A DNA stretch of 64,000 nt from Thermoanaerobaculia bacterium (GCA_963821225.1 CAWGCY010000006.1:275217-339216); one strand, 5' to 3'; numbered from the stretch's first letter, positions 22,922-61,913 are shown. Numbers and translations are program-made. The notes: a model not told the origin generated them from the letters alone.

Positions 22922-22939
22922 GTTGTTCTCGCTCCGCTT

Positions 22940-24624: not shown

Positions 24625-24736
24625 GGTGCTGTCCTCCCCATGTTAAAAAACGTTTCCGTGTATCTGAGCAACGCCTCTTCTTGTTCGTTCCTCGCCCGGA
24701 CCTGTTCCAGAGTATCCTCTTCGCCTTCACGCCGGC

Positions 24737-25759
<1,023 letters not shown>

Positions 25760-26941: not shown

Positions 26942-26953
26942 AGCGTTCTCCTT

Positions 26954-27993: not shown

Positions 27994-28142
27994 AGACACC
28001 TCCTTAATCGCCGGGAAAATGGGAGCGGACTCGTTTCGAGCTTTCGTGACGAAAGGCGACCTCCTGGGACCGGAACGGTGACGGCCCCGCGGACCGCCGT
28101 CGCCTGGAGGCAGCCAAGTGCTTGATACGACGATGCTTAAAG

Positions 28143-28182
28143 CTAAGACACATCCGTCTTAGTGGTTCGACCATTGGACCAA
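28143..28182. promoter_or_regulatory. Operator-like region upstream of OFOR operon 2: hairpin CTAAGAC-acatcc-GTCTTAG followed by AGTGGTTCGACCATTGGaCCAAATG (homologous to 12875-12898 in reverse orientation)
   Basis: Reverse complement CATTTGGTCCAATGGTCGAACCACTA aligns with CACTGGACCAGTGGTCGAACCACTT from cluster 1. The 14-bp core matches at 13 of 14 positions. Confidence 0.4.
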
Positions 28183-28262
28183 ATGTAGAGCGTCCGGCCG
28201 CTCGGAGATATGACGCGAATGAATCAGTTAGCGGGCGACCGAAAGGCTGGCGGCGCCGCTCG

Positions 28263-35508: not shown

Positions 35509-35519
35509 GTGCGCTCTTT

Positions 35520-35600
35520 CTGCCTTTCCCTACGCCGGTTCGAACCGGATCAGGTTCCGGGGTGTGATCTCAGGCCCTCTCGGGCCACCCCCAGGCAGGA
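35520..35600 (-). ncRNA. TPP (thiamine pyrophosphate) riboswitch, THI element, in 5' leader of the TonB-dependent receptor gene
   Basis: The reverse-complement RNA reads CCUGCCUGGGGGUGGCCCGAGAGGGCCUGAGAUCACACCCCGGAACCUGAUCCGGUUCGAACCGGCGUAGGGAAAGGCAG. Every conserved THI-box block is present: GGGGUG(G)CCC, GGCCUGAGA, ACACCC, GAACCUGAUC, GGUU..AACC (the P3 hairpin), and GCGUAGGGAA. A CUGCC/GGCAG P1 helix closes the element. It ends 12 nt before the start codon. Confidence 0.8.
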
Positions 35601-35698
35601 ATAAATGTGGGCCCGAAACCGCCCGGAGTCAAGCGCAGCCTTTCTGCGGCGTTCCTGAGGAGGTTTCGTTGCAGAATCCGCCCGGAAGGAGACGTCAC

Positions 35699-38661: not shown

Positions 38662-38776
38662 GCCGGGAAGATACGTGGCCGGGACGCCGGAAGCCAACTT
38701 AGGTGTCCGAGGCCGACGAAGAAGGCGCCCTCAGCGTGCTAGCATCTTGGTGTTTCGAGGTCACCACGGAGCTCCG

Positions 38777-41465: not shown

Positions 41466-42605
41466 TCAGAAGTAGAAGACCTGGACCTGGACCGTGTACT
41501 GGTTCGTCGAGGCCACGTTCCTGTTGTCCGGGGCTTCGGTGCGCGTGAACCCGGCCTTGATGTTGAAGTTATAGCCGTAGGGGTACCAGCCTACGCCCCC
41601 CTGGTACTTATTCCTGTTGAGGCCCTTGTTCACGTCGTCCGAGTACTTCAGCTGCTCGTAGCGGATGAACGGCATGATCTTGGGTCCGCCCATGTAGAAC
41701 CCGGCTTCGGCGTACAGGTCGTCCTGCTTGAAGAGCGCCGCCGTGTTGAAGGTGACGCCGCCATCGTAGTGGATGTAGTCGGCTTGCACCGTGATGCCGT
41801 TGCCCGCTCCGACGGGATAGTCGAAGAAGGCGTCGCCGGCGTACGCGATGTAATCGCTCTGCGCGTCGATGCCCGCCCCGATCGCGAGAATCTTCTTCTT
41901 GCCGAGGTACGTGCCCGGGTAGAACGGGCCCACCTCGACGTCGAACACGTTGTACTGGAGACGCCCGGCGTACCGGAACGAGTTTTTCACCCCGGGAGCG
42001 CGGAAGCCGGAATAGACGCCCGCGCGGTACTCGAGGTGGTTGTCCGCGAGGTAGCCCTTCGCCTGGAATCCGGTATCGCGTCCGACGGAGGACTGCGTCG
42101 AAGCGCTTTCCTGGAACGACCAGGTTCCGTAATCCATCGTGAGCAGGTTCACGGCGCTCGAGTTGCAGTTGCGGCAGAGCGGAATGAGGATGAGGCCGCC
42201 GTCGATCCGGAACTCGTTCGCGATCGCCCACTCCACGAACGCGTCCTGGACGATGAAGCCCGTGCCCGGCGCCTTGCCGCCGGCACCGCCCGCAACGGTC
42301 TGCGTGGACTTTCCGAGGTTCGGGTTGTCGGTCATGAAGAAGAACGTGACGTTCTTCGCGACCTGCCCGCCGAGGAAGAACCTGGCCCGGCGCAGGAACA
42401 GGTTCTGCTGGAAGCCGGCCGTATCCCCCGTGGCAGTGGACTGGCCGGTCCAGTCGGCCCACGCCTGAAGCAGGATGCCGAGCTTGAAGTTAACGGTATC
42501 GTTGACCTTGATGACGGCCTGAGCATTCGCGACTGCTGGCAACAGCGCGATGAGCAGGGCAAGGGAAACGAGGGCGAATCGATTCGAACGAATCTTTGAA
42601 CGCAC
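41466..42605 (-). CDS. Outer-membrane beta-barrel porin (phosphate-selective porin O/P-like)
   Basis: Signal peptide FALVSLALLIALLPAVANA. The composition is beta-strand rich and the C-terminus is ...YTVQVQVFYF. GTG start at 42605 preceded by GAAGGAGGAAG. Confidence 0.75.
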   Translation of the reverse strand: MRSKIRSNRFALVSLALLIALLPAVANAQAVIKVNDTVNFKLGILLQAWADWTGQSTATGDTAGFQQNLFLRRARFFLGGQVAKNVTFFFMTDNPNLGKSTQTVAGGAGGKAPGTGFIVQDAFVEWAIANEFRIDGGLILIPLCRNCNSSAVNLLTMDYGTWSFQESASTQSSVGRDTGFQAKGYLADNHLEYRAGVYSGFRAPGVKNSFRYAGRLQYNVFDVEVGPFYPGTYLGKKKILAIGAGIDAQSDYIAYAGDAFFDYPVGAGNGITVQADYIHYDGGVTFNTAALFKQDDLYAEAGFYMGGPKIMPFIRYEQLKYSDDVNKGLNRNKYQGGVGWYPYGYNFNIKAGFTRTEAPDNRNVASTNQYTVQVQVFYF

Positions 42606-42875
42606 ACCTTCCTCCTTCAAGTCAGCACGCCGATGAGCGGCACGGCTGGAGCGCATCTATGGTGAAAACGATAGACATCTAATGGTTTCCACGTCAACAG
42701 GAATCTTCCGCTCGAGGCTGATGCATCTGCATTAACACAGGGCCAGTATTTCGCTTGACATGGAACGCCAGAGTGAAAGACTCGCGCCCAGTCTTGTTTG
42801 CCATGAATTCAGGATTTGGAGTCCGCTTCGCGCGATGGCGCAGCGGCGGCCCGGCCACTTCCGAGGCGCGGCCGC

Positions 42876-42896
42876 ACTCCCGGAAATCCCGGGAGT
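42876..42896. promoter_or_regulatory. 21-bp palindrome ACTCCCGG-aaatc-CCGGGAGT upstream of the MFS/CoA-transferase cluster
   Basis: Perfect 8-bp arms, about 130 nt upstream of the MFS start. It lies in a 420-nt divergent intergenic region of locally lower GC. Confidence 0.35.
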
Positions 42897-43025
42897 CTTC
42901 TCCCATCTCTGCGTTAACGCGGTACAAATGACTGGATCGAACTGAAAAAGGAGACTTAAGACCAGGTCGTCGTCGTTCCCCAGTTTTCTGGAACGCCATG
43001 AACCGAAAGGAAGGGAGGCTCTAAT

Positions 43026-44288
43026 ATGTCAAGTTCTGCTGGAACCGCGGGGGCCGCTGCCGTGGATGTCGGGTTGAATCGATGGTGGCGCGTGGTAGGC
43101 GGGCTTCTGATGAATCTGGCTCTGGGCTCGCTCTACGCCTGGAGCGTCTTCGTGGCGCCTCTGGAGAAGGAATTCGGCTGGAAGCGAGCGGACACGTCCG
43201 AGGTGTTCACGTGGGCCGTCGTCGTATTTGCCATCGCCTTCATCGTCGCCGGACGCCTCCAGGACAAGCTGGGTCCCTTCATGGTCTCGATGATCGGCTG
43301 CATCCTCCTGACGGCGGGCTTCATCCTGTGCATGTGGACGAGCAGCCTGACGTACCTGATCATCTGCTTCGGAATCCTCGTCGGTATCGGTAACGGATTC
43401 GGCTACGCGACGCCGATCCCGGTCATGTCGAAATGGTTCCCGGACAAGCGCGGCCTGGCCGTCGGCCTGGCCGTTGCCGGCTACGGCGGCGGCTCGGCGA
43501 TCTTCGGGCCGCTCGCGAACCTCTGGCTGATCCCGACGTACGGGTGGCGCGCCACGTTCGCCATCCTCGGCGTCATCTTCTTCGTGATGACCCTCGTCGG
43601 AGCGTTCCTGCTGAAGAACCCTCCCGCCGGGTACACGGTGTCGGGCTGGGTGCCGGCGTCGAAACCGAAGTCCCTGGCGACGACCTACGAGTTCACGCCC
43701 GGCGAGATGTGGAAAACCCCGCCGGCCTATTTCATGTGGATCGCCTACTGCCTGGGCTGCGCCGCCGGCCTCATGGTCATCAGCCAGCTGATCCCGTTCG
43801 CCAAGAGCGTGGGGATTCCCGGGTCGGCTCTCCCCGTCATCGGACTCGTCATCGGCGCGGCGGGCAATGCCTCTGGCCGAATCCTGTCGGGCTGGATGTC
43901 CGACGCGATGGGACGCCTCAACGTCCTGCGTTTGATGATCGGCATCTCGGCCGTCTCCATGCCCATCCTCTACCTCACCGGCAGCAACGTCGCGATGCTC
44001 TACATCATGGTGTTCATCGTCTACTGGTGCTACGGCACGCAGCTTTCGGTGAACGCCTCCACGACCGCCGACTTCTGGGGCACGAAGAACGTCGGCATCA
44101 ACTACGGAATACTGTTCACCGCCTGGGGCGTCGCGGGCTTCATCGGACCGAGGATCGGCGGCGTGCTCTTCGACAAGTACAAGAACTACCAGGCAGCTTT
44201 CTACACGGCCGCTGCGCTGGCGGTGGTCGCGCTCATCGCTGAGTTCCTGGCGCGGCGGCCGTCGCCGCCGACGGCGGCGCGCGCGTAG
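43026..44288 (+). CDS. MFS transporter, oxalate/formate antiporter (OFA) family
   Basis: 420 aa with 12 TM helices. LMNLALGSLYAWSVFVAPLEKEFGW...GIGNGFGYATPIPVMSKWFPDKRGLAVGLAVAGYGGGSAIFGPL is typical of the OFA/OxlT-like subfamily. GGAAGGGAGG RBS. Confidence 0.85.
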   Translation: MSSSAGTAGAAAVDVGLNRWWRVVGGLLMNLALGSLYAWSVFVAPLEKEFGWKRADTSEVFTWAVVVFAIAFIVAGRLQDKLGPFMVSMIGCILLTAGFILCMWTSSLTYLIICFGILVGIGNGFGYATPIPVMSKWFPDKRGLAVGLAVAGYGGGSAIFGPLANLWLIPTYGWRATFAILGVIFFVMTLVGAFLLKNPPAGYTVSGWVPASKPKSLATTYEFTPGEMWKTPPAYFMWIAYCLGCAAGLMVISQLIPFAKSVGIPGSALPVIGLVIGAAGNASGRILSGWMSDAMGRLNVLRLMIGISAVSMPILYLTGSNVAMLYIMVFIVYWCYGTQLSVNASTTADFWGTKNVGINYGILFTAWGVAGFIGPRIGGVLFDKYKNYQAAFYTAAALAVVALIAEFLARRPSPPTAARA

Positions 44289-44340
44289 CGGACGCAGATC
44301 GTGACACGGAACCCTTTTCGATAACGGACAGGAGAAGAGA

Positions 44341-45756
44341 ATGGCAGACACGACGTTTCCCAAACACAAGGTCCTGCCTTGGCCGGCGGTCCCGATCCCG
44401 ACACCCGACGAGGTCTACGCTGGCCTCACGGACCAGGCCAAGGAATATCCCCTCTCGCTCGAGAAGCAACTCAGGCAGAGCGAGAACTTCAAGAAGCCCG
44501 AGAACCTGACGACGGTTCGGGTCCTCGATCTGACCAAAGGGATGATCATCGGCAACTGGGCCTCCTCGATGCTTTCCGAGCTGGGCTCCGACACCATCAA
44601 GTGCGAGCCGCCCGACGGCGACCCGCTGCGGTGGCAGACGCCGTTCGGGCGCAAGGAGTACATGATCAAGGACGCCGAGACCGGCGAGCCGATCGGCCTC
44701 CACTTCCTCCACGAGATGAGGAACAAGCAGTCCATCACTCTCAATCTCGAGAAGCCGGAGGGCCGCGAGCTTCTCAAGAAGCTCGCCGTCCACGTCGACG
44801 TCCTGATCGAAAACTACGCGCCGGGGCAATTCGACGCGTGGGGAATCGGCTATCGGCAGCTCAAGGAGATCAACCCGAGGCTCGTCTATTGCTGGGTCGG
44901 GCAGAAGGGCCAGTGGGGCCCGTCCAAGGACAAGCCCGGTAACCTCGACCCGACCGCTCAGGCTTCCTGCGGATTCATCCACGGCACGGGCCTCCCGAAG
45001 GAGTTCGGCGGACGGCCCACCCGCTCGGCCATGTGGATGGCCGACCAGGTCGGCGGGACCACGGCGGCCATCGGGATCCTCGCCGCGCTCCTCTACCGCG
45101 ACAAGGTCTCGGGCAAAGGCCAGTTCGTAGAAGCGACGGCCGCGGAAGCCGTCATTCGCATCCTGGACTACAACTGGGGCTGGTACGGGTTCGACGGGAG
45201 CATCCGCCCCCGCTACGGCAACTGGGACCTGGCCATCAACATCTACGCCGTCAACCCATGCAAGGACGGCTATTTCATGGTAGGCGGCGGACACGATCGC
45301 CTCTGGTACCGGATCTGGCGGACGGTGGGGCAGACGCGTCCCGACCTCGAGGACGAGATTCTCGACGACAAGAGCCTCCGGGTGGTCACGGCGCGGCTTC
45401 CACACCTGAAGCAGGTGAAGACGTACACGGTCCTCGCCGACTGGCAGAAGGATCATTCCCGGGCAGACGCCATGCACCAGCTGCTCGCACAGCAGGTTGC
45501 GTCCGGCGGCGTGAACTACATCGACGAGGTCGCCGAAGACCCGCATTTCAAGTACAGAGGCCACGTCGACGAGTTCGACGACCGGCTCTACGGGAAAGTC
45601 CTCTATGGCACGTCGCCTTTGCTCGAGGACAAGGCTCCCGCGCGCCTGAAATGGATCGGCCGGCCGCTGGGATACGACAACGGAGAGATCTACCTGAAGC
45701 TGCTGGGACTTGGGCCCGCTGAGGTTGCGGGGCTCAAGAAGCGCGGCGTGGTTTAG
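44341..45756 (+). CDS. Family III CoA-transferase (CaiB/BaiF/Frc-like), subunit A
   Basis: 471 aa. RVLDLTKGMIIGNWASSMLSELGSDTIKCEPPDGDPLR...LIENYAPGQFDAWGIGYRQLKEINPRLVYCWVG...D is the family-III signature. Confidence 0.85.
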   Translation: MADTTFPKHKVLPWPAVPIPTPDEVYAGLTDQAKEYPLSLEKQLRQSENFKKPENLTTVRVLDLTKGMIIGNWASSMLSELGSDTIKCEPPDGDPLRWQTPFGRKEYMIKDAETGEPIGLHFLHEMRNKQSITLNLEKPEGRELLKKLAVHVDVLIENYAPGQFDAWGIGYRQLKEINPRLVYCWVGQKGQWGPSKDKPGNLDPTAQASCGFIHGTGLPKEFGGRPTRSAMWMADQVGGTTAAIGILAALLYRDKVSGKGQFVEATAAEAVIRILDYNWGWYGFDGSIRPRYGNWDLAINIYAVNPCKDGYFMVGGGHDRLWYRIWRTVGQTRPDLEDEILDDKSLRVVTARLPHLKQVKTYTVLADWQKDHSRADAMHQLLAQQVASGGVNYIDEVAEDPHFKYRGHVDEFDDRLYGKVLYGTSPLLEDKAPARLKWIGRPLGYDNGEIYLKLLGLGPAEVAGLKKRGVV

Positions 45757-45768
45757 GAGGCAGAAGAG

Positions 45769-47112
45769 ATGGCCACACCCGATTTCGAAACTTACTGTCA
45801 GCAGCTCTTCGACCACAAGACGGCTGCCGGCAAGCCGGAGGTCCTGAAGGGTTATCGCGTTCTTTCGTGCACGCAGTACATCCTCGGTCCTTCCTGCGCG
45901 AGCTATCTGGCCGAGCTGGGAGCCGAGGTCATCAAGATCGAGACGCCGAGGCGCGGCGAGCCGATGCGTCACACGACGCCGTTCAACGAGCCTCTCCTCT
46001 ACCCGCTTTCCCGCTGGGTGCCTGAGGCGGGGACGGGCCTCGGCTTCTTCGGGGCCAACCCGAACGAGGAGTTCATCAGTCTCGACTTCCACCGGCCGGA
46101 GGCGAGGCAAGCCATGTTGGAGCTGGCGGCCAAGTCGGACGTCATGGTCCAGAACTTCCGGCCCGGGACGTTCGACCGGTGGGGGATGGGATATCAGCAC
46201 TTTTCCAAGGTGAACCCCCGCCTCGTCTACCAATGGCTGGGGGGGTTCGGCGGCTGGGGGCCGGGACGCGTGCGTGCCTCCTACGACATCCTGGGCCAGG
46301 CAATGGGCGGCGCCTTCGGGATCACGGGCGAAGCCGCAGACCGGGGCGGGACGCCCTCCAAGCACACGATCTGGCTCGCCGACTACTGGGGCGGCATGAT
46401 GGCCGCGGTCGGCATCCTGGCCGCTCTCTACTATCGCGACACGGTCTCCGGCCAGGGTTGCTTCATCGAGTACTCGCAGGTGCACGGCGTCACGCGGATG
46501 CTCGAGTACGCTCTTCCGCTCTATGGCCGGTTCGGGGTTCGCCGGGAGCGGTGGGGTAACTGGGACACGGAGCTCTGCCCGCACGGGATCGTCCAGTGCG
46601 GCAAGTCGTCCTATCCAGGCTCCAAGAACCCGCAGGAGGCCGAGGTGGGGTACATCCTCGTCTCTGCCCATACGGACGAGGACTTCAAGAAGCTGTGCGG
46701 CGTGATCGGGGCGAAGGACCTCGGGACGTCACTCGCGAAGCACGACGAGCGCGTCAAGGCCGAGAATCAGAGCACCGTCTACGATGCCATCGAGGCCTGG
46801 GCGAAGGACAAAACCAAGGAAGACGTTGCAACCCTCCTCGACAAGGCCGGCCTCAACAACCAGCCCGTTTGGAACGCGAAGGAGGTTTCCGAGCATCCCC
46901 ACTGGAAGCTGCGCGGCGCGGTCCAGTGGATCGACGACCCGATCTACGGCGACCTCCACCATCAGGGTCCGGCCTTCAAGATGTCCGACACGCCTCCGCG
47001 CCTGAAGTGGGCGCTGAAGCCCGTGGGCACCGACAACGAGAGGGTCTACGGCCGGCTTCTCGGGTGGACGAAATCGAAGCTCGCGAAGATGGAAGAGATG
47101 GAGGTGATCTGA
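45769..47112 (+). CDS. Family III CoA-transferase, subunit B (paralog of upstream gene)
   Basis: 447 aa. RVLSCTQYILGPSCASYLAELGAEVIKIETPRRGEPMR...VMVQNFRPGTFDRWGMGYQHFSKVNPRLVYQWLGGFG. The adjacent paralog pair resembles heteromeric BbsEF-type CoA-transferases. Confidence 0.85.
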   Translation: MATPDFETYCQQLFDHKTAAGKPEVLKGYRVLSCTQYILGPSCASYLAELGAEVIKIETPRRGEPMRHTTPFNEPLLYPLSRWVPEAGTGLGFFGANPNEEFISLDFHRPEARQAMLELAAKSDVMVQNFRPGTFDRWGMGYQHFSKVNPRLVYQWLGGFGGWGPGRVRASYDILGQAMGGAFGITGEAADRGGTPSKHTIWLADYWGGMMAAVGILAALYYRDTVSGQGCFIEYSQVHGVTRMLEYALPLYGRFGVRRERWGNWDTELCPHGIVQCGKSSYPGSKNPQEAEVGYILVSAHTDEDFKKLCGVIGAKDLGTSLAKHDERVKAENQSTVYDAIEAWAKDKTKEDVATLLDKAGLNNQPVWNAKEVSEHPHWKLRGAVQWIDDPIYGDLHHQGPAFKMSDTPPRLKWALKPVGTDNERVYGRLLGWTKSKLAKMEEMEVI

Positions 47113-47113
47113 G

Positions 47114-47530
47114 ATGGCCACCGAGTCTGGCGTCATCAAACAGGGCCTGGTGCTCACGTGCGCCAAGTGCTCCACGAAGAACTTCCTCGACCCGTATCCG
47201 TTCTGGAACTTCAGCGGCAATACGAAGTGCGCCGGTTGCGACGCCATTTATGCCGTGACGTTCGTCAAAGGCCAGCAGACGAGCGGGCCGACGGCCGCCA
47301 CGGGGAAAGCCGATCTGCTGCCGGGCTACGCCGAGGACAAGACCGGAGCCGCCATCACCGGGGAAGGGAAGATCCGCCCGGCGCCGCAGGCGCGGCCGGA
47401 TCCTTTCACCGGGCAGCAGAAGCAGATCACGAAGAGCCTCAGGGGCAATCCGGTCAGCGGCAGCCGTCTCAAGAAGGAAGATCTCGTGGGAAGCCGGCCC
47501 AGGTTCATCGTGGACCTGCACAAGGCCTGA
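47114..47530 (+). CDS. Zn-ribbon (CxxC-x17-CxxC) protein with disordered C-terminal tail, 138 aa
   Basis: LVLTCAKCSTKNFLDPYPFWNFSGNTKCAGCDAIYAV. It starts 1 nt after the CoA-transferase stop. GGAGG RBS. Confidence 0.55.
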   Translation: MATESGVIKQGLVLTCAKCSTKNFLDPYPFWNFSGNTKCAGCDAIYAVTFVKGQQTSGPTAATGKADLLPGYAEDKTGAAITGEGKIRPAPQARPDPFTGQQKQITKSLRGNPVSGSRLKKEDLVGSRPRFIVDLHKA

Positions 47531-47546
47531 AGAAGGAGAAACAGCC

Positions 47547-47741
47547 GTGGCAGAGACTGAAAAGAAAAAACAAGAGTCGACCTACAAGTGCTGCGAACAC
47601 TTCGAAGCGGCGCTGGATCCGAACATCCTGAGGGCGTACGTCGGCTACTGCAAAGCGCGCGCGTGGCCCTTCACCGTGATGGTTCCGATCGGCGGGCTGG
47701 AGGGCGAGTGTCCGAAGCCCCCGATCAAGAAGAAGGCCTGA
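47547..47741 (+). CDS. Cys-rich microprotein, 64 aa
   Basis: MAETEKKKQESTYKCCEHFEAALDPNILRAYVGYCKARAWPFTVMVPIGGLEGECPKPPIKKKA. GTG start with an AAGGAG RBS 9 nt upstream. Confidence 0.45.
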   Translation: MAETEKKKQESTYKCCEHFEAALDPNILRAYVGYCKARAWPFTVMVPIGGLEGECPKPPIKKKA

Positions 47742-47758
47742 GACGGCCGGGAACAGGC

Positions 47759-48091
47759 ATGGCGAGCCTCCGAGAGGAGTTCGAGCAGCGGTACGGACGA
47801 CTCTGGTCCGGCGCGTCGTCGCTCGAAATCGGGGGCGTCACCTACGAGCTTGAAGAGGTGATGCACAAGATCGGCTTCGGCTTCGAGGGGCTCAAGCTCA
47901 TCGACGCCCCTCGGGTCGAAGCCGGCCGTTCCGCCATCCGTTTCTTCGACGGCGAGGTTCGGAGCATCGTGTGCCTCGAGCTGGGGGAGGACCTAACGAT
48001 TCTAGAAGAGCATCGGGTCCACATCGCCGAGTGGCTTGGGGACGCCTACTTCGAGACGGAATGGCAGGTTAACTGCCCCATGGATTTCTGA
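47759..48091 (+). CDS. Hypothetical protein, 111 aa
   Basis: MASLREEFEQRYGRLWSGASSLEIGGVTYELEEVMHKIGFGFEGLKLIDAPRVEAGRSAIRFFDGEVRSIVCLELGEDLTILEEHRVHIAEWLGDAYFETEWQVNCPMDF. The composition is protein-like. It lies in an operon context. Confidence 0.5.
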   Translation: MASLREEFEQRYGRLWSGASSLEIGGVTYELEEVMHKIGFGFEGLKLIDAPRVEAGRSAIRFFDGEVRSIVCLELGEDLTILEEHRVHIAEWLGDAYFETEWQVNCPMDF

Positions 48092-48102
48092 GAGGAGACA
48101 GC

Positions 48103-48507
48103 ATGAAAGTCAAGTTCTACTATTCCAGCAAGGACAAACCGGGCGAGCAATACCCGTGCAACATTGCGGACTGCCTGGAAAAGATCAAGGCGCTGAAGGG
48201 ATACGGAGTCGACGCCGAGGCGATCGACGTGGCCGGCGTGGCGGACGTTTTTCGCTTCTACCACTCGGCCCTGACGGGCCCGCCCGCGACCGTTCGGGCG
48301 GTCTTCGGCATGAAAGGCGCGCTCGAGGCGGACTTCGGCCGCGTGACGCCCGCCGTCCTCATCTTCGGCGACCCGAAGGATCGGTATCCCACCGACGCCT
48401 ATCCGCGGCAGGATCAGGCCCGCGGCGGCCTCGTCGGATGCGATAAGGCGCTGGGCGACCTCATCAAGACGCCGGAAACGGGGGACGTTCCGGGAGGTTG
48501 GCGATGA
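48103..48507 (+). CDS. Hypothetical protein, 134 aa, possible thioredoxin-like fold (KVKFYYSS...YPCNIADC)
   Basis: GAGAGGAGA RBS. A beta-strand followed by paired Cys 4 residues apart, then a helix. The fold assignment is speculative. Confidence 0.55.
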   Translation: MKVKFYYSSKDKPGEQYPCNIADCLEKIKALKGYGVDAEAIDVAGVADVFRFYHSALTGPPATVRAVFGMKGALEADFGRVTPAVLIFGDPKDRYPTDAYPRQDQARGGLVGCDKALGDLIKTPETGDVPGGWR

Positions 48508-48556
48508 ACGTTGTCGCGGAACGGCGGCCAGGGAGCACCCGCGAGGAGGCGCCCCG

Positions 48557-50224
48557 TTGAGTACGATTCCCGCGGACTACCTTCCGCCGAAGGAATTTCA
48601 ACCCGATCGGATCTACAAGCTCAAGGAGTTCGCGAGCTATCCGGATTCGCTGAACAGCACCGAGGAGCTGCTCGACAAGCAGATCGCGGCAGGCCGGGGC
48701 GACCGCCCCGCGATCCTGTTCGGTGACAAGGTCATCACGTACAAGCAGCTTCTAGGGGCCGCCTGCAAGATCGGAAATGCCCTCAGAAAGCTCGGCGTCG
48801 AGGAGACGGACCGGGTCATGCTCCGGTCGCCGAACGTTCCGCCCGCGCTGTTCACGAATTTCGGCGTCCTGAGGCTTGGGGCCGTGATGGTCCCGACCTC
48901 GCACATGCTCTCTCCGAACGAGATCGCGCACATCGCCAACAACGCCGAGGCGAAAGTGATCGTCGTGGCGGCCGCGTTCGCGGAGGGGGTCGTCAAGGCG
49001 CGGGCGAATCTCAAGACGACCAAGCACGTCATCGTCTTCGGCGGTAAGCCGGAGGAGCTGAAGGCGCAGGGGCTTCTCTGCTACGAGGAGCTCGTCGCGA
49101 ACGAGTCGCCGGCTCTCGATCCGGTCCGCCGTCCGCGCACGGCGGTCTCCGTCCTGCTCTACACATCGGGAACGACGGGCATGCCGAAGGGAACGGCGCA
49201 CTACATGGAAGAGGCGCTGATCGTCCCGGACACGATGGGAAAGTACGGGTGGAACGTACAGCCCGAGGACGTTCTCTGCGGCCCAGCTCCCATCTCGCTT
49301 GCCGGCGGGTACTCGACCGTGGCGACAATTCCATTCCGGTTCGGCGCCGCGGCTTCCCTGATCGCGAAGTTCACTCCCGAGGGGCTCTTCGAGCAGATCC
49401 AGAGCCACAAGGTGACGATCCTGAGTGCTCTCCCCACGGCCTACCGGAAGATGCTCGAGTTCGCGGGCACGGACAAGAAGTTCGATCTGTCGAGCCTTCG
49501 CGTGCTGACAGGGGGCGGCGAATCGCTGACGGCCAAGACGTATCTGGACTGGAAGGCCCGCTTCGGCCAGGAGATCTACGAGGGCCTCGGAACGACGGAG
49601 ATGATGTACGTCTTCGTCTCCAGCGTGGTCACCCGCAAAGTGAAGCCGGGGGCGATCGGCACCGCGGTCCCCGGGTACGAAATCCAGGTCATCACGGAAG
49701 AAGGCAAGGTCGCGAAACCGGGAGAGCTGGGAAGGCTCTACGCTCGCGGCCCCACGGGGACCCTCTATTGGCGTCCCCTCGAGGAGGGTGGAAATCTCCT
49801 CGAGAAACAGAAATCGCTCATCCGCGAAGGGTGGGTGCTGGTCGGCGACTTCTGCACGATGGACGAGGAGGGGTACCTCAGCTTCGTCTCCCGCCAGGAG
49901 GATCTGATCAAGAGCTCCGGCTACCGCATCGGTCCTGAGGAAATCGAAGACGCGCTTCTCAAGCATCCCGCCGTGGCCGACGCGGGCGTGATCGGCATCC
50001 CGGACCCCGTCCGGGGACAGAACGTCAAGGCCGCCGTCATCCTGAAACCCGGGATCACGCCGAGCGAGGAGCTGAAGAAGCAGCTCATCGACAGCTGCCG
50101 GGATCACGTCGCGATTTACAAGCTGCCGCGGATCGTGGAGTTCGTCACGGAGCTTCCGCGCACGCTGCAGGGGAAACTCCTGCGGCGGGTTCTGCGGGAC
50201 AAGGAGCCGGCGCCCACGAAGTAG
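48557..50224 (+). CDS. AMP-forming acyl/aryl-CoA ligase (benzoate/4-hydroxybenzoate-CoA ligase-like)
   Basis: 555 aa. LLYTSGTTGMPKGTAHY is the AMP-binding motif. YGTTE is approximated by EGLGTTEMMYVF. Also present are GWVLVGDFCTMDEEGYLSFVSRQEDLIKSSGYRIGPEEIE and the conserved C-terminal K (PRTLQGKLLR). TTG start with a GAGGAGG RBS. Confidence 0.85.
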   Translation: MSTIPADYLPPKEFQPDRIYKLKEFASYPDSLNSTEELLDKQIAAGRGDRPAILFGDKVITYKQLLGAACKIGNALRKLGVEETDRVMLRSPNVPPALFTNFGVLRLGAVMVPTSHMLSPNEIAHIANNAEAKVIVVAAAFAEGVVKARANLKTTKHVIVFGGKPEELKAQGLLCYEELVANESPALDPVRRPRTAVSVLLYTSGTTGMPKGTAHYMEEALIVPDTMGKYGWNVQPEDVLCGPAPISLAGGYSTVATIPFRFGAAASLIAKFTPEGLFEQIQSHKVTILSALPTAYRKMLEFAGTDKKFDLSSLRVLTGGGESLTAKTYLDWKARFGQEIYEGLGTTEMMYVFVSSVVTRKVKPGAIGTAVPGYEIQVITEEGKVAKPGELGRLYARGPTGTLYWRPLEEGGNLLEKQKSLIREGWVLVGDFCTMDEEGYLSFVSRQEDLIKSSGYRIGPEEIEDALLKHPAVADAGVIGIPDPVRGQNVKAAVILKPGITPSEELKKQLIDSCRDHVAIYKLPRIVEFVTELPRTLQGKLLRRVLRDKEPAPTK

Positions 50225-50286
50225 AACCGACTTCACGTCACGTCGCGCGCGCGGGGCGGCGGAGATCTGAACTAACATTCCGCGCC

Positions 50287-51144
50287 ATGAGTCCGATGGT
50301 CTTGCAGGCCGTCGCATCCGGCCTCGTGCTCGGTCTGGTCTATGCCGGAATCGGGGCCGGCTTTTCGCTCATCATGGCCACCGGACGCCTGATGAATCTC
50401 GCCCACGGCGAGTTCGTTCTCGTCGGGGGCTACATCCTCTTCGTTCTGTGCCAAGGGATCGGCTGGCCGTGGCCGGCGGCCCTCGCGCTGACGCTTCTCG
50501 GAGGGGCGCTCCTCGGAGCCGCCCTGCCCCCTCTCGTCCGCCGTCTGCCGCGCCGCGAGTCGGACGGGCTGGCATTGACGCTTGGCGTCGGCTTCGTGCT
50601 GCAGAGCCTTCTCCTGCAAGGGGCGAGTGCGACGTATCGCGTGATTCCCGGCGGGGCCTGGCCGGAGACGATGGCATTCGGGCCGGTCACTCTCAGTCGG
50701 ATCACGCTGGCAGCGGCCGGCGCGGCGGCTGCGGCCCTCGTCGGCCTCGACCTCTGGCTCCACGTTTCCTGGACGGGTACAGGGCTGAGGGCGGTCAGCC
50801 AGTCCCGGCCCGCCGCGGCCAGTCTCGGGATCTCTCCTGCCCGGATGGAATGGGTCGCCTTCCTCACCGGGGGAGCGATCGCGGCCGGCGCCGGGGGACT
50901 CGTGCTCCTGACCCGCTTTCTCACTCCGGCAGAAGGCCCGGCCTGGACGCTCGTGGCGCTCGCCGTCGTCTTCCTTGGAGGGCGACCCCGGGCGGGAACC
51001 CTCGTCGCGGCGGGAGTCGCGCTTGGAATCCTCGAATCTCTCGCAACCGTGCTCGTGGGAGGCGGCTGGCGCGAAATCGTCGCGAGCGCTTGCGTCCTCC
51101 TTTGGCTTCTCGTCCCCGGGAGGACGGAGCTCGCCGATGCATGA
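50287..51144 (+). CDS. Branched-chain amino acid-type ABC transporter permease (LivH-like)
   Basis: 285 aa with about 8 TM helices. The LivH/LivM family signature around GGALLGAALPPLVRRL...LTLGVGFVLQSL. Confidence 0.8.
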   Translation: MSPMVLQAVASGLVLGLVYAGIGAGFSLIMATGRLMNLAHGEFVLVGGYILFVLCQGIGWPWPAALALTLLGGALLGAALPPLVRRLPRRESDGLALTLGVGFVLQSLLLQGASATYRVIPGGAWPETMAFGPVTLSRITLAAAGAAAAALVGLDLWLHVSWTGTGLRAVSQSRPAAASLGISPARMEWVAFLTGGAIAAGAGGLVLLTRFLTPAEGPAWTLVALAVVFLGGRPRAGTLVAAGVALGILESLATVLVGGGWREIVASACVLLWLLVPGRTELADA

Positions 51145-52756
51145 GGGGAGGCCGTTCTTTCTCGCGTGGGCGGTCGTTCTGGGAGCCAGCGGGATCGCCA
51201 TCGCGACCCTGGGCCGATACGGCGTGAACGTCGTGGCCTTCGGGCTTCTCTACGCCGCCCTCGCGACGAGCTGGAGCTTCATGCGGGCCACCGGGCTCTT
51301 TTCCTTCGGGCAGGCGGCGTTTTTCGGGGTGGGGGCGCTGACTCAAGCCTGGCTCGTCGCGGTCGGACGGACCTCTCCGTGGCTGGCCCTCTCCGCGAGC
51401 GCGGCGGCAGGCGCTCTGGCTGCCGTTCCGTTGATCCCCGGCCTCCGCCTTTCTCCACCGGGCTTCGGCCTTGCAACTCTCGCCTACGCGATCCTTTTGA
51501 GAGGCCTGGCCGGGAACGTGCCGGACTTCGGAATGGAGGGATTCCTTCTCCCCACGACGCCGGGCTTCGACGGGCCGGCCGCCCCGGTCGTGGGGACGCT
51601 GGCTGTGCTCGTCCTCGTCAGCGGCCTCGGTTACGAAGTTTTTCTCGGCCGGCCAGGCGGCCGCGCCGCCGCCGCCCTTCGCCAGTCACCCGAGACGACG
51701 CTCAGCCTCGGCATCGACCCCGTCTCGGCGCGATGGCGCCCGTTGACGTTGAGCGCGGCGACGACCGCGATGGCGGGCGCTCTTTACGCCCACCTCGTCG
51801 GGAGCGTCGAGACGACCGTCGTTTTCTCATCGACCTTCTCCGTCGTGCCGCTGGTACTGGGAATGCTCGGAGGCGCCCTCAGCCCGCTTGGCGGGCTGGT
51901 CGGGACGCTCGCTCTCTACCCGGTCGACGAGCTCTTCTTCAGGCCTGCTCTTCCCCTCGCGCACACGCTGGCCTATGGCCTCGCCCTGTGCGGGTTGCTC
52001 CTCTTCAAACCGGAAGGACTCCTCGGAGCCCGGACGCCACGGATTCCCGCCTCCGCCGCTCTGCGGCGGATCCCGCATGGACCCTGTAGCCTGGCCGTTC
52101 GCGACCTGACCGTGCGCCGCAATGGGACTCCGGTACTCCAGGACGTCAGTTTCGCGATCGAGCCCGGGCAGATTCTCAGGGTTCTCGGCCCCAACGGCGC
52201 TGGGAAAACGTCGCTTCTCCTGGCGATTGCGGGAAGGATTCCTGTCGCACGAGGAGCGATCCTTCTGGGCGGTACGCCGTCACCGCGTGGCCCGGCCGCG
52301 CGGGTCCGGCGCGGCGTGGGGCGGACGTTTCAGGCGCCCCGGCCGTTCCCGGAGTGGACCGTACGAGAGAACGTCGCGCTCGCTTCGGAACGCGGGAACG
52401 CCTCGGGCGAAGTGGAGGAACTCCTCCGGGAACTCGACCTTTCCGCACTTTCAGGTCGCCCGGCCGGGCAGCTGAGCGTGGGGGAGGGGAAACGCCTGGA
52501 CCTCGCGCGGGTGCTCGCCCTCGAACCCGCGCTCCTGCTGCTCGACGAGCCCCTCGCCGGGCTCAGCCCGGCAGCCGCCGAGCGCGTGTCCGGCGCCATC
52601 GAGCGGAAGCGCCGCGAGGGCACAGCCGTCGTCTGGGTCGAGCATGGCCCGGCCGCCGGCGATCTGACCAACCAGCTTCTCGTCCTCGACGGCGGACAGG
52701 TTCGTTTCCTCGGGTCGCCCGGCGACTGGGAGGCGGCGCGCAAGGCGCAATCGTGA
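51137..52756 (+). CDS. Fused LivM-like permease + LivG-like ABC ATPase
   Basis: The N-terminal ~330 aa form a polytopic permease. They run without a stop into LAVRDLTVRRNGTPVLQDVSFAIEPGQILRVLGPNGAGKTSLLLAIAG (Walker A), LSVGEGKRLDLARVL (signature) and LLLLDEPLAGL (Walker B). The start overlaps the livH stop by 8 nt. Confidence 0.75.
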   Translation: MHEGRPFFLAWAVVLGASGIAIATLGRYGVNVVAFGLLYAALATSWSFMRATGLFSFGQAAFFGVGALTQAWLVAVGRTSPWLALSASAAAGALAAVPLIPGLRLSPPGFGLATLAYAILLRGLAGNVPDFGMEGFLLPTTPGFDGPAAPVVGTLAVLVLVSGLGYEVFLGRPGGRAAAALRQSPETTLSLGIDPVSARWRPLTLSAATTAMAGALYAHLVGSVETTVVFSSTFSVVPLVLGMLGGALSPLGGLVGTLALYPVDELFFRPALPLAHTLAYGLALCGLLLFKPEGLLGARTPRIPASAALRRIPHGPCSLAVRDLTVRRNGTPVLQDVSFAIEPGQILRVLGPNGAGKTSLLLAIAGRIPVARGAILLGGTPSPRGPAARVRRGVGRTFQAPRPFPEWTVRENVALASERGNASGEVEELLRELDLSALSGRPAGQLSVGEGKRLDLARVLALEPALLLLDEPLAGLSPAAAERVSGAIERKRREGTAVVWVEHGPAAGDLTNQLLVLDGGQVRFLGSPGDWEAARKAQS

Positions 52757-53457
52757 CGGCGGACCTCGTCGCACGCGAGCTCACGGGCGGCTATCCCGGT
52801 GCGATCGTCTTCTCGGGGGCGAGCTTGTCCGTGAAATCGGGGGAGATCCTGGTCGTTTTGGGCGCCAACGGCTCGGGGAAATCCGCGCTGCTCGAGACTC
52901 TGCAGGGCCTTCTGGTGCACCGTGGCGGTGAGGTCCTTCTCGATGGCGAGAGCGTCCAGGACCTCGCGCCGGAAGCCCGCGCGGTACGCGGGATGAGCCT
53001 CGTCTCCGACCGGCGACGGCTCTTCGGGAATATGACGGTCGACGAGCATCTCCGGGTCGGCGCGTTTCGCGCTGCAGCTCGGCTCGGCTGGCGCCGTCGC
53101 GCGCTCGAGGTTCGCGGCCTCTTCACGGGCTTGACGCTGCATCGCGGCGCGCGACCGGCGGGCTTGAGCGGCGGCCTCCAGCAGCAGTTGGCGCTCGCGA
53201 GGTTTGGGATGTCCTCCCCGCGAGTCTGGCTGCTGGACGATCCTCTTCAGGGGCTCGATGAGGAGACGACCGGAGGTGTCCTCGACTGGATCCAGACGGC
53301 AGCGAGTGCCGGCGCAGCCGTGATCCTGACGGGACAGCACATCCGCGCCCTTCTCGGTGTTGCGACGAAGGCGATGTTCCTCGAAGGGGGCTCCCTCTCG
53401 GCGCTCTCCGTCGGCGCCGAAGGCCTTGAGGATCCGCGCGTGCGCGGGCTGCTCTGA
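52753..53457 (+). CDS. ABC transporter ATP-binding protein (LivF-like)
   Basis: The GTG start overlaps the upstream stop (GTGA). GANGSGKSALLETL is Walker A. LSGGLQQQLALARF is the signature. VWLLDDPLQGLD is Walker B. Confidence 0.8.
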   Translation: MTADLVARELTGGYPGAIVFSGASLSVKSGEILVVLGANGSGKSALLETLQGLLVHRGGEVLLDGESVQDLAPEARAVRGMSLVSDRRRLFGNMTVDEHLRVGAFRAAARLGWRRRALEVRGLFTGLTLHRGARPAGLSGGLQQQLALARFGMSSPRVWLLDDPLQGLDEETTGGVLDWIQTAASAGAAVILTGQHIRALLGVATKAMFLEGGSLSALSVGAEGLEDPRVRGLL

Positions 53458-53506: not shown

Positions 53507-53998
53507 CTACGGAACCTGATATTCTCCCTCGATCTGTTCCGTGACGCTGCCGTCGGCGTTAATCGTGCCCTTGTAAGTGCCCCTTCCTTTCAGACCTTTC
53601 AACTTCCCGGTGCCCGCCGTGAAGGTCCATGAACCCTGGGCGCTCTGAAGGACTCCGTCCTTCGATTTCGCGGATCCATGAAAACTCGTGGCGAAGGTGT
53701 CTCCGTTGACCATCGTTCCCGCGTGGAACCCATGGTTCGCCACATTCTCGCCGGTCACCTCGGCAAAGGCGGTGCTGACGCCGTCCTTCGTCAGCACGCC
53801 AGCCATCTCGATCGGCTTGCTCCAGGTGCACTGAGCTTTCTCGATGGCGAAGACGTGGTTGGGTTTGTCGGTGAGAGGAATGTTGTAGGCCGGGTCCGGC
53901 TTGCCACACTTCAAGGTGCCGGAGATCTTCGTCTGCGCGGCCGCCGGCGCGGCGAGTGTTGCGGCGAACAGGAACACCAGAAGACGCTTGTCGCTCAT
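53507..53998 (-). CDS. Secreted hypothetical protein, 163 aa
   Basis: Signal peptide MSDKRLLVFLFAATLAAPAAAQ, followed by a Gly/Thr/Lys-rich beta-type sequence. Confidence 0.6.
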   Translation of the reverse strand: MSDKRLLVFLFAATLAAPAAAQTKISGTLKCGKPDPAYNIPLTDKPNHVFAIEKAQCTWSKPIEMAGVLTKDGVSTAFAEVTGENVANHGFHAGTMVNGDTFATSFHGSAKSKDGVLQSAQGSWTFTAGTGKLKGLKGRGTYKGTINADGSVTEQIEGEYQVP

Positions 53999-54165
53999 GA
54001 ATCCTTCCTTCCTCGGCTTCTACCGACGTCGCTTTCCTTGAAACAGACCACGTGGGCCGGTTGTCGGTGGGGAGTCTCCGTCTGCTGCCGGGGCTCGTCA
54101 AGGGCAAGAGGGGGCCGATCAACGACCGCCGCGGCCGAAAGCCGTGTCGTATAGTCCCCGCCGCC

Positions 54166-54576
54166 ATGAGCGAACCCGAAGTGAACTCCACCGCGTCCGC
54201 ACACTTCATCGTGGCGCCGTCCGATCTCGCGAGCGCCCTCAACCTCGAGCCCGAGGACGCGTTCCCGCCGGTGTTCGCGACGTCCCGCATGGTGGCCCTG
54301 ATGGAGCTCGCGGCCGCCCGCCTTCTCCGTCCCCATCTTCGGGCGGGCGAGCTCTCCGTCGGAGTCACCCTCGACGTCGTCCATACGGCCGCCACCCCTC
54401 CCGGCGCCACCGTCTCGGCCACGGCGAAATTCCTCGGGCGCGAGGGGAAGCTCTTCGTCTTCGAGGTCCTCGCCAACGACGACGCGGGCGAGATCGGCCG
54501 CTGCACGCACAAGCGGGCGGTCGTCACGACCGAGAGGCTCGTCGCGGGCGCGGCTCGCCGTGGAGAAAAGGCCTGA
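54166..54576 (+). CDS. Hotdog-fold acyl-CoA thioesterase (FlK/PaaI-like)
   Basis: 136 aa. FATSRMVALMELAAARLL...VGVTLDVVHTAATPPGATVSATAKFLGREGKLFVFEVLANDDAGEIGRCTHKRAVV. Confidence 0.75.
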   Translation: MSEPEVNSTASAHFIVAPSDLASALNLEPEDAFPPVFATSRMVALMELAAARLLRPHLRAGELSVGVTLDVVHTAATPPGATVSATAKFLGREGKLFVFEVLANDDAGEIGRCTHKRAVVTTERLVAGAARRGEKA

Positions 54577-55357
54577 CGCCTCGTTGACGAGCCTCGAGAT
54601 CCTCGGGCGGCGCCTCGAATACCGCTGGATAGGGCCGCGTCCCGGCGACGCGCCGTCGATCGTGTTCCTGCACGAGGGCCTCGGTTGTGTGGGAACGTGG
54701 CGGGAGTTCCCCGAGCGCCTGGCGTCCGCGACCGGCTGCGGCGCTCTCGTTTACAGCCGGATGGGCTACGGCGGGTCCGATCCCCTGATCGGAAAGCGGC
54801 CGGTCCGTTACATGCACGACGAAGCGCTGGGGGCGCTCCCGGCGGTCCTCGAGCACCTCAAGCTCGAGAATGTCGTCCTCTTCGGGCACAGCGACGGCGC
54901 GTCGATCGCGCTCATCCACGCAGGCGCCCAGGGGGGCTCCGTCCGCGGGCTGATCGTCGAGGCGCCGCACGTCTTCGTGGAGTCCATCAGTATCGAGGGG
55001 ATCCGGCGGACCACGGCGGATTACGAGACGACGCGCCTGAAAGAACGCCTCGCCCGATATCACGGCAGCAACACCGATTCGATGTTCCGGGGGTGGTCCG
55101 ACGTTTGGCTCAGCCCCGAGTTCCTGGAGTGGAACATCGAGGAGTACCTGCCGGCGATCAAGTGCCCCGTGCTCGTCGTCCAGGGTGAAGACGACCGGTA
55201 CGGCACTCTCAAGCAGGTCGACGCCGTGGTGGCGCAGGCCGGGGGTTCGGTCGAATCACTGATCCTTCCCCGTTGCGGCCACTCCCCGCACTCGGAAAGG
55301 CCGGACGAGGTACTCAAAGCTGCGACCCGGTTCATCAAGAACGCAATCGACATCTAG
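54560..55357 (+). CDS. Alpha/beta hydrolase (GHSDG nucleophile elbow)
   Basis: SIVFLHEGLGCVGTWREF...VVLFGHSDGASIALIHA...GHSPH. The listed GTG overlaps the thioesterase end by 17 nt. A TTG at 54584 is an alternative start. Confidence 0.75.
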   Translation: MEKRPDASLTSLEILGRRLEYRWIGPRPGDAPSIVFLHEGLGCVGTWREFPERLASATGCGALVYSRMGYGGSDPLIGKRPVRYMHDEALGALPAVLEHLKLENVVLFGHSDGASIALIHAGAQGGSVRGLIVEAPHVFVESISIEGIRRTTADYETTRLKERLARYHGSNTDSMFRGWSDVWLSPEFLEWNIEEYLPAIKCPVLVVQGEDDRYGTLKQVDAVVAQAGGSVESLILPRCGHSPHSERPDEVLKAATRFIKNAIDI

Positions 55358-59295: not shown

Positions 59296-59367
59296 GTCGC
59301 TCCTCGAGATCGTGCTCGGCGAAGTCTATCCCGGCGGGGTGGTACGAGCGGCTAGACTCGTCGTCTG

Positions 59368-61895: not shown

Positions 61896-61913
61896 AGAGA
61901 CTCGAGGTGTTAC

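Follow-up and report, generated by a model that had tools for sequence, protein, structure and literature searches.

In a 64,000-nucleotide (nt) stretch of DNA from a Thermoanaerobaculia bacterium (GCA_963821225.1, CAWGCY010000006.1:275217-339216; the whole of this stretch is called the window below), eleven genes at 43026-53457 were analyzed, among them two adjacent paralogues encoding family-III coenzyme A (CoA) transferases, here CT1 and CT2, and four genes for small orphan proteins, here S1 to S4. Comparison with related loci revealed that CT1, CT2, S1 and S2 are the invariant unit of two cluster types, and that the Acidobacteriota-type clusters (group 1) add S4, S3, a ligase of the ANL superfamily and an FlK-type thioesterase to this core. 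From these sequence comparisons it is tentatively proposed that the island in the window may be the Thermoanaerobaculia form of a conserved, undescribed CoA-thioester module, by which a small alpha-substituted monocarboxylic acid would be taken up and processed via CoA thioesters. The central enzymes belong to known superfamilies, and the make-up of the operon would be new: no described counterpart was found in literature searches, which gave nothing relevant, in agreement with an earlier note on this DNA that had matched the island to no described operon.

All eleven genes lie on the plus strand according to open reading frame (ORF) calls, translations and the frame-specific G+C content at third codon positions (GC3), which matched the called frame for every gene in a window of high G+C (about 0.60-0.70). 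The intergenic gaps are, from 5' to 3', 52, 12 (between the two transferases), 1 (between CT2 and S1), 16, 17, 11, 49 and 62 nt, and the last two junctions are overlaps of 8 and 4 nt, so that the co-directional, tightly packed arrangement reported in the earlier note was confirmed by the gene calls. Because of this tight spacing translational coupling is indicated, and Shine-Dalgarno-like motifs could be read off the sequence ahead of S1, S2, S4 and the ligase. S2, with 64 amino acids (aa), fell below the minima of the ORF lists used (70 and 125 aa) and was clear in the GC3 frame plot. Promoter and terminator scans of the cluster gave nothing better than shuffled sequences, and no riboswitch was detected in or near it. 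The extent given in the earlier note holds for the genes at 43026-53457 and fails for the end at 53457, since the conserved part runs on to 54052-55357 (Table 1).

Both transferases matched PF02515 (cut-off 23.3 bits), CT1 with 279.2 bits and CT2 with 304.6 bits, and are 35% identical to each other, which bears out a CoA-thioester cluster around an adjacent pair of family-III paralogues. Asp205 of CT2 aligned with the nucleophilic Asp of YfdW, SUGCT and BbsF (the Frc/YfdW Asp169 position), and Asp235 of CT1 aligned with this catalytic-position residue of CT2. The CT2 Asp was invariant in all of the 146 loci fetched. The CT1 Asp was kept in 115 of 122 loci, including 75 of 75 in group 1, and was replaced by Ser in 7 of 47 loci of the second cluster type (group 2). 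Since the Asp is invariant in CT2 and is Ser in the CT1 of these seven loci, CT2 is the safer candidate for the catalytic subunit; judged from the alignments it is probably that subunit, with CT1 as its partner, and the replacement suggests one catalytic and one structural subunit.

Neither CT1 nor CT2 reached any NCBIfam equivalog cut-off, including those of Frc, YfdE, CaiB and the mesaconate and glutarate enzymes, and matches to solved structures stayed at about 98-135 bits. The best of these for CT2 was BbsF (125.5 bits); the nearest solved relatives of CT1 were formyl-CoA transferase and SUGCT, and its score against BbsE was 98 bits. No record of the exact CT2 sequence was returned by the look-up. 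The pair had been likened to the heteromeric BbsEF (PDB 9fn0), with which it shares two adjacent paralogous family-III subunits. This part of the comparison stands, whereas orthology does not: the scores are low, CT1 and CT2 are 40-60 residues longer, the carrier points to a monocarboxylate context, and no bbs neighbours are present, with no genes for the acyl-CoA dehydrogenase, hydratase or thiolase of bbs-type beta-oxidation in the loci inspected. BbsEF is thus an analogy only.

The four small ORFs are real and unlike anything described, as the earlier note had supposed. By tblastn, S1 to S4 were recovered in conserved order, with identities of 35-96%, from most of 80 related loci, and independent gene callers gave products of 140, 64, 110 and 141 aa for them in the closest relative. 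Searches against Pfam and NCBIfam with E-values up to 10 returned zinc-ribbon noise only, and profiles of S1 and S3 found no match among PDB sequences. In S1 the residues C16, C19, C39 and C42 are invariant, together with the motif LDPYxFWNF between the Cys pairs, LPGxA and several Arg and Gly; the C-terminal half is conserved and extended, with many invariant Arg, Gly and Pro residues. By these features S1 would be a Cys4 zinc ribbon with a tail lying along a partner protein. The S1 family is tiny: a search of 1.84 billion representatives gave just 56 clusters for it at 50% identity, and in the loci examined S1 never occurred in another context, S1 and S2 being essentially confined to the neighbourhood of CT2 orthologues. 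Apparent S1 fusions of 235, 234 and 182 aa look like frameshifted or chimeric gene calls and were set aside.

S2 has four Cys positions that hardly vary, or do not vary at all, between Acidobacteriota and the archaeal-type homologues, and a His follows the first Cys pair in most, not all, sequences. S2 and S4 are one protein of about 200-212 aa, with S2 N-terminal, in at least 55 loci, and are split with S3 in between only in Thermoanaerobaculia-type loci, the window included. The fused form has 596 database relatives, all named 'hypothetical' and without a Pfam match. The AlphaFold2 model of S2-S4 was poor (predicted local distance difference test score, pLDDT, 52.6) and gave the S4 part a beta-alpha-beta...beta-beta-alpha topology. 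S4 has no CxxC redox motif, and one Cys (in FPCD) is conserved in the S4 part of 55 fused sequences; on the model, S4 is a putative thioredoxin-fold protein lacking CxxC. S3 is retained in about 60 loci, Terriglobia having two paralogues of it, and its 159 database relatives are again all named 'hypothetical'. Its position varies: it lies between S2 and S4 in the window, several kilobases downstream in Terriglobia, and upstream on the opposite strand in Rokubacteria.

With CT2 as query, 139 relatives came out of a genome scan, of which the best 80 (L001-L080), all metagenome-assembled genomes, were compared; counts out of 80 below refer to these. CT2 identity ranged from 68 to 96% across them, the closest relatives (96%) being Thermoanaerobaculia, which assigns the window to Acidobacteriota. 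In Thermoanaerobaculia the order CT1-CT2-S1-S2-...-S4-ligase was found with the window proteins as tblastn queries at 80-96% identity. The order CT1-CT2-S1-S2(S4) was kept in 71-80 of the 80 genomes, which cover Acidobacteriota, Methylomirabilota/Rokubacteria and Armatimonadota. The small proteins remained about 35-60% identical in Terriglobia, 'Acidiferrales', Rokubacteria/Methylomirabilota and one Armatimonadota genome. When Terriglobia ORFs were used as queries, S1 was detected in 79 loci, S2-S4 in 71, S3 in 63 and the ligase, downstream of S4, in about 62.

Terriglobia loci carry further genes. Downstream of the ligase, L077 (14172-14735 and 15697-16455) and 43-44 other loci encode a stand-alone PAS protein and an alpha/beta-hydrolase-like protein of 252 aa; read by eye, the motif 'IPEKHRPRHWEGY' of the former looks similar to the FixL haem pocket. 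Other additions are a second hydrolase (28 loci), Amidohydro_2 (26), an R2-like di-iron protein (14), a HAD hydrolase (10) and an aldehyde dehydrogenase (9). Moreover, three consecutive genes of the U32 peptidase family stand immediately upstream of the CoA-transferase pair in 16 loci (L077 1317-8174; L081-L083 1875-6429). In the one of these checked, L077, they are accompanied by a fusion of 3-deoxy-D-arabino-heptulosonate 7-phosphate (DAHP) synthase and chorismate mutase, an ABM-like protein, the R2-like di-iron protein and Amidohydro_2; U32 proteins together with a source of prephenate are reminiscent of O2-independent hydroxylases. In Rokubacteria/Methylomirabilota a second family-III CoA-transferase pair, 35-38% identical to CT1/CT2, is inserted between S1 and S2-S4 (L032 11894-14532; L030 3909-6529). 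The 124-aa protein that comes with this insertion was considered as an S1 or S3 paralogue and rejected, being a small signal-peptide protein.

Group 2 came to light through distant S1 homologues and was extended by a metagenome scan that gave 281 relatives, of which 80 loci were kept; their G+C spans 0.34-0.64 and they come from marine sediment and other sources. The CT1-CT2-S1-S2 order was seen in 84 further, group-2 loci (L088-L171), and in the 80 metagenome loci kept the gene order was nearly invariant: CT1 (about 504 aa), CT2 (about 475), S1 (about 160), an S2-like protein (76-86), a helical protein (about 104), a protein of about 148 aa and a metallo-beta-lactamase protein with tetratricopeptide repeats (MBL-TPR, about 396). 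Compared with the window, CT1 is 48-50% identical, CT2 about 50% and S1 35-41%. Two of these loci lie among genes of clearly archaeal type (thermosome, Alba, RFC, Cgi121, Trm10), and many are bacterial, with PAS/GAF sigma-54 activators upstream. The ligase, the carrier, the FlK-type enzyme, S3 and S4 are all missing from group 2. Both cluster types pair the core with a hydrolase of the small-thioester kind, since the nearest solved relatives of the group-2 MBL domain, at a weak level of about 45 bits, are LACTB2, hydroxyacylglutathione hydrolases and the PqsE thioesterase. Neither this core, common to Bacteria and archaea, nor the FlK-type partner of group 1 had been picked up in the earlier note.

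Additionally, two orphan families always stand between S1-S2 and MBL-TPR in group 2, one of about 148 aa and one of about 104 aa and helical (e.g., L140 7840-8286; L152 6847-7176). The former is highly conserved and starts with 'MPEKxRVxxCGFDPMLVRGY', and neither has a Pfam match. The group-2 small proteins (f144 and f187 families) were tried as relatives of S3 and S4 and rejected, as the profile-profile probability was below 1%.

The first gene of the island encodes a carrier of the major facilitator superfamily (MFS) that had been taken for a member of the oxalate/formate antiporter (OFA) family. This was not borne out. The protein matched MFS_1 in Pfam and reached the NCBIfam equivalog NF049980 for the L-lactate carrier SfMCT (393.7 bits, cut-off 320), and stayed below the cut-offs of the OFA subfamily TIGR00890 (244 vs 375) and of OxlT TIGR04259 (204.3 vs 335); among solved structures, SfMCT (6g9x) gave 238.6 bits and OxlT (8hpj) 124.5 bits. 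Six of nine SfMCT pocket residues are kept (L28, Y119, N276, R280, Y331 and F359), and the kept residues bind the carboxylate and alpha-hydroxyl of lactate in the L-lactate/H+ carrier of Syntrophobacter fumaroxidans, which also binds thiosalicylate and whose lactate uptake is lowered merely 5-14% by oxalate (PMC6573034). Lys355 of OxlT, the second basic residue for dicarboxylate binding, is Trp here, and the dicarboxylic substrate considered in the earlier note has no support from the carrier. In many Terriglobia loci a homologue with 61-78% identity flanks the transferase pair. By its sequence the carrier would transport a monocarboxylate, which need not be lactate.

The ligase matched PF00501 (237.1 bits) and PF13193 (78.1 bits), which places it in the ANL superfamily. 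It stayed below all NCBIfam cut-offs (PRK06187, 352 vs 476; benzoate-CoA ligase TIGR02262, 290.4 vs 375.25; PRK04319, 320.6), and its solved relatives were mixed: anthranilate-CoA ligase 263 bits, acetyl-CoA synthetase 255, benzoate-CoA ligase 224 and a Methanosarcina medium-chain enzyme 222. Because of these mixed relatives and missed cut-offs, its earlier naming as an aryl-CoA ligase is not established, short- and medium-chain synthetases scoring equally well.

The thioesterase matched PF22636 with 96.5 bits (cut-off 27), is 47% identical to FlK of Streptomyces cattleya, and probably starts at Met39, near 54166. In FlK, Arg120 and Gly69 recognize the alpha-fluorine, and Thr42, His76 and a water make up the catalytic triad (PMC2903362). 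All five of the key residues T42, E50, G69, H76 and R120 are kept in the window enzyme and in nearly all of 26 cluster-linked homologues. The gate loop FAEFP is one residue shorter in the window enzyme and lacks F33, with F36 and P37 kept. In loci without transporter genes between them (e.g., L002) the ligase is directly followed by the homologues of 54052-54576 and 54560-55357, and the alpha/beta hydrolase stands right after the thioesterase at 69-80% identity in nine Thermoanaerobaculia loci.

These transporter genes, of the ATP-binding cassette (ABC) type, are a lineage-specific insertion and lie outside the conserved unit. They occur in only 6 of the 80 loci, and their region has a G+C of 0.68-0.69, against 0.62-0.64 for 42001-50000. 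The earlier note had read them as a LivHMGF-type system without binding protein: two permeases and two ATPases are indeed present without one, whereas LivM and LivG are a single fused gene (one high-scoring segment pair of 515-537 aa in all six loci) and membership of the conserved unit fails. Neither the Liv nor the Urt equivalog cut-offs were reached. No binding-protein gene lies between ligase and thioesterase, in the window or in the six ABC-carrying loci, and none was seen among the window ORFs scanned, which were not every ORF. For the orphan on the opposite strand, which separates the ABC genes from the thioesterase, none of the 80 loci gave a homologue.

Ahead of the island lies the porin gene, whose homologues in L001, L003, L006 and L011, four Thermoanaerobaculia loci, also adjoin the cluster and are 79-88% identical. 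Beyond the other end, the ADP-forming acyl-CoA synthetase keeps its relative position at 76-90% identity in ten Thermoanaerobaculia loci. Each of the two is a possible member of the cluster.

Table 1. Genes of the island and its flanks in the window, with positions counted from the first nucleotide of the window.
Feature	Position	Strand	Size, start or family
Porin_O_P-type anion-selective outer-membrane porin, divergent	41466-42656	-	PF07396, 25.9 bits
MFS carrier, SfMCT-type monocarboxylate	43026-44288	+	420 aa
CT1, family-III CoA-transferase paralogue	44341-45756	+	471 aa
CT2, family-III CoA-transferase paralogue	45769-47112	+	447 aa
S1, Cys4 orphan	47114-47530	+	138 aa
S2, Cys-rich mini-protein	47547-47741	+	64 aa, GTG start
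S3, orphan alpha+beta protein	47759-48091	+	110 aa
S4, putative thioredoxin-fold protein	48103-48507	+	134 aa
ANL ligase	48557-50224	+	555 aa, TTG start
LivH-like ABC permease	50287-51144	+	PF02653 (BPD_transp_2)
LivM-LivG fused permease and ATPase	51137-52756	+	BPD_transp_2 and ABC_tran in one ORF
LivF-like ATPase	52753-53457	+	PF00005 (ABC_tran)
Secreted-looking 163-aa orphan	53507-53998	-	no Pfam match
FlK-type hot-dog thioesterase, outside the island as first described	54052-54576	+	PF22636
Alpha/beta hydrolase	54560-55357	+	PF12697, PF00561
ADP-forming acyl-CoA synthetase, convergent	57265-59295	-	CoA_binding_2, Succ_CoA_lig, ATP-grasp_5

In the working that we propose for the uptake and processing of a small acid, the substrate would be a monocarboxylate with a polar alpha-substituent, and the products of the island would divide the labour as follows. 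The acid would first pass the outer membrane, possibly through the anion porin, and then enter by the SfMCT-type carrier; lactate-, glycolate-, 2-hydroxy- and halo-acid-like compounds are candidates. The ANL ligase would spend ATP on the first acyl-CoA, after which CT1/CT2 would pass CoA on to new substrate molecules from the thioester of a product or donor, sparing ATP at each turn. CT1, CT2, S1 and S2 would constitute one enzyme complex, and S1, S2, S4 and S3 may serve as metal-binding, redox or scaffold subunits, either for assembly of the complex or for conversion of the CoA ester. The FlK-type thioesterase would hydrolyze the end-product or an off-pathway small thioester.

Several observations weigh against this proposal. 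No recognizable enzyme for the conversion step is present in the cluster. Three of the nine SfMCT pocket residues are changed in the carrier (L145Y, F335L and C362W), and for this reason lactate itself is not assured as the substrate. The best solved relative of the ligase is an anthranilate-CoA ligase, and the Terriglobia neighbours (Amidohydro_2, ABM-like, R2-like di-iron and U32) have an aromatic flavour. Since ligase, carrier and FlK-type enzyme are all absent in group 2, the function of the core may be wider than the uptake and catabolism of one acid. No cultured strain was present among the best 80 of the 139 CT2 genome matches, and members of PF22636 other than FlK have no known substrate (PMC2903362).

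The main idea of the earlier note, the catabolism of an aromatic acid under anaerobic or hypoxic conditions, in which the ligase would make an aryl-CoA and a BbsEF-like transferase would serve an aryl or arylalkyl acid, appears doubtful. It is consistent with BbsF as the best solved relative of CT2, with the anthranilate- and benzoate-CoA ligases among the best solved relatives of the ligase, with the thiosalicylate bound by SfMCT, and with the Terriglobia genes just mentioned, the DAHP-synthase/chorismate-mutase fusion included. Liv-type ABC systems are frequent companions of aromatic-acid clusters, and one is present in the window. However, these ABC genes are confined to six loci, the aromatic-looking neighbours occur in only 14-26 of the 80 and none of them in the window, and no bbs-type beta-oxidation, ring-reducing, epoxidizing or UbiD-type genes were found in the loci inspected. 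The ligase, below the benzoate cut-off, scores equally with acetyl- and medium-chain synthetases, and the residues of the small polar pocket of FlK are kept in the thioesterase.

It is rather unlikely that the core instead serves housekeeping or the stress response, by the repair, detoxification or recycling of small CoA thioesters or of CoA-thiol adducts, for instance lactoyl-CoA formed from methylglyoxal where CoA is the thiol buffer, with the carrier exporting the released acid. The lack of ligase and carrier in group 2, the location of some of its loci among archaeal housekeeping genes (thermosome, Alba, RFC, Trm10) and the small-thioester hydrolases of both groups (FlK-type, and MBL related to glyoxalase II) would fit such a role, as would the putative thioredoxin fold of S4, the Cys4 proteins S1 and S2, the lactate-type carrier and the presence at the window locus of four enzymes that make or break CoA thioesters (ligase, transferase, thioesterase and ADP-forming synthetase). 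Nevertheless, the case is purely contextual and no glyoxalase-I-like protein was recognizable. An ATP-consuming ligase in about 62 of the 80 group-1 loci fits uptake and activation better, and sigma-54 PAS/GAF activators, found beside many group-2 loci, typically accompany catabolic operons that are induced by their substrate.

A bolder version of the complex proposed above, to which a similarly small chance is given, would make CT1/CT2 with S1 and S2 an unrecognized multi-subunit metal enzyme of Bacteria and Archaea that performs new chemistry on a small alpha-substituted acyl-CoA. An example would be a CoA-dependent, glyoxalase-like route to or from lactoyl- or glycolyl-CoA in which the thioester is conserved, and the FlK-type thioesterase or the glyoxalase-II-like hydrolase might then act as a release valve.

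That the small ORFs are unrelated passengers (regulators or metal chaperones) in a merely syntenic block is very improbable: the shifting position of S3 between lineages could be taken that way, but S1 and S2 are found essentially only beside CT2 orthologues, in two domains of life and two cluster types, and the spacing points to translational coupling. The handling of oxalate and formate by Frc-like transferases and an oxalate:formate antiporter, the lead suggested by the wider OFA relationship of the carrier, by partial Frc matches and by a thiamine pyrophosphate (TPP) enzyme and glycolate-oxidase genes near one Rokubacteria locus (L061), is effectively excluded, as the carrier is of the SfMCT type without the Lys355 of OxlT, oxalate is a poor competitor of lactate in SfMCT, CT1 and CT2 score 136.4 and 169.9 bits against the Frc model TIGR03253 (cut-off 504.2), and domain scans found in the cluster no TPP-dependent decarboxylase, as the earlier note had observed, and thus no oxalyl-CoA decarboxylase partner. 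The L061 neighbours, being present in 1 of the 80 loci, were dismissed as incidental. Frc/YfdW with OxlT therefore resembles the island only in combining a family-III transferase with a carrier of the OFA-related MFS branch, and annotation of these genes as 'oxalate/formate antiporter plus formyl-CoA transferase' is wrong.

The closest parallels for the proposed working are found in pathways in which CoA is primed by a ligase and recycled by a transferase, such as CaiC/CaiB/CaiT for carnitine and BaiB/BaiF/BaiK/BaiG for bile acids. In the cai and bai operons a ligase of the ANL type is combined with at least one family-III CoA-transferase and with a dedicated membrane carrier; bai encodes, in addition, a pair of transferase paralogues and small NTF2-like proteins. 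The ligase-then-transferase logic proposed for the island is that of CaiC/CaiB and BaiB/BaiF. Unlike them, the transferases here score 83-89 bits against the NCBIfam CaiB model (cut-off 413), no dehydrogenase, hydratase or dehydratase genes are present, and S1 to S4 are unrelated to Cai or Bai proteins as far as Pfam and PDB searches tell.

For the small proteins, parallels are more distant. DUF35 of the archaeal thiolase/hydroxymethylglutaryl-CoA synthase complex and BbsA are small Cys4 zinc ribbons beside CoA-ester enzymes, which they are thought to hold together, and S1 is likewise a small Cys4 protein encoded directly beside CoA-ester enzymes. However, S1 has no Pfam match to DUF35 or its zinc-ribbon domain; the spacing of its Cys pairs differs from that of DUF35, and it has an extended tail in place of the OB fold of DUF35. 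To our knowledge, small Cys-rich subunits have not been described for BbsEF. Thioredoxin 2, which combines a zinc finger with a thioredoxin domain, differs from S4 in that the latter lacks CxxC, has one conserved Cys and a low-confidence model, and gave no sequence-level match. The thioesterase resembles FlK (3kv7) in its overall identity and five key residues (PMC2903362), but its gate loop is shorter and without F33, it belongs to a CoA-transferase cluster and not to a fluorometabolite locus, and its host is not a known maker of fluoroacetate.

Family-III CoA-transferases are regarded as homo- or heterodimers that need no partner proteins, and here one pair is genetically bound to orphan Cys4 proteins in Acidobacteriota, Methylomirabilota, Armatimonadota, sediment bacteria and archaea, on hundreds of metagenome contigs, with none of the families named or modelled in Pfam. 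If these proteins form one enzyme, it would represent a new architecture for CoA-transfer enzymes and would probably mark an unrecognized step by which abundant, mostly uncultured microbes of soil, peat and sediment turn over small organic acids. An FlK-like thioesterase whose fluorine-reading pocket residues are intact is, moreover, present in organisms not known to meet fluoroacetate. The four orphan families (six with those of group 2) and the breadth of their conservation make the system worth experimental work, for which the fused S2-S4 form and the pairing of one catalytic with one possibly non-catalytic subunit are among the entry points.

Other features of the window were recorded as well. 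Next to the porin gene, the plus-strand gene at 38660-41410 encodes 916 aa; its product has a stretch rich in Ala and Gly in the N-terminal half and DUF4388/PatA_N as the C-terminal domain, and is kept beside the porin in the closest relative. A TPP riboswitch (RF00059, 62.9 bits) at 35509-35602 on the minus strand lies directly upstream of a gene for a TonB-dependent receptor (33358-35508, minus strand), which suggests thiamine-regulated outer-membrane uptake. At 21413-29033 on the minus strand, genes for TctA and TctC of a tripartite tricarboxylate transporter and for a subunit of a 2-oxoacid:ferredoxin oxidoreductase lie beside a GntR/FCD regulator; with the genes for malic enzyme and pyruvate phosphate dikinase found elsewhere in the window, they point to central metabolism of the anaerobe type. 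Finally, at 57265-63670 the ADP-forming acyl-CoA synthetase gene stands beside two genes of the histone deacetylase family and two CBS or CBS-ACT genes, a set that looks like an AcuABC-like system for acetylation control.

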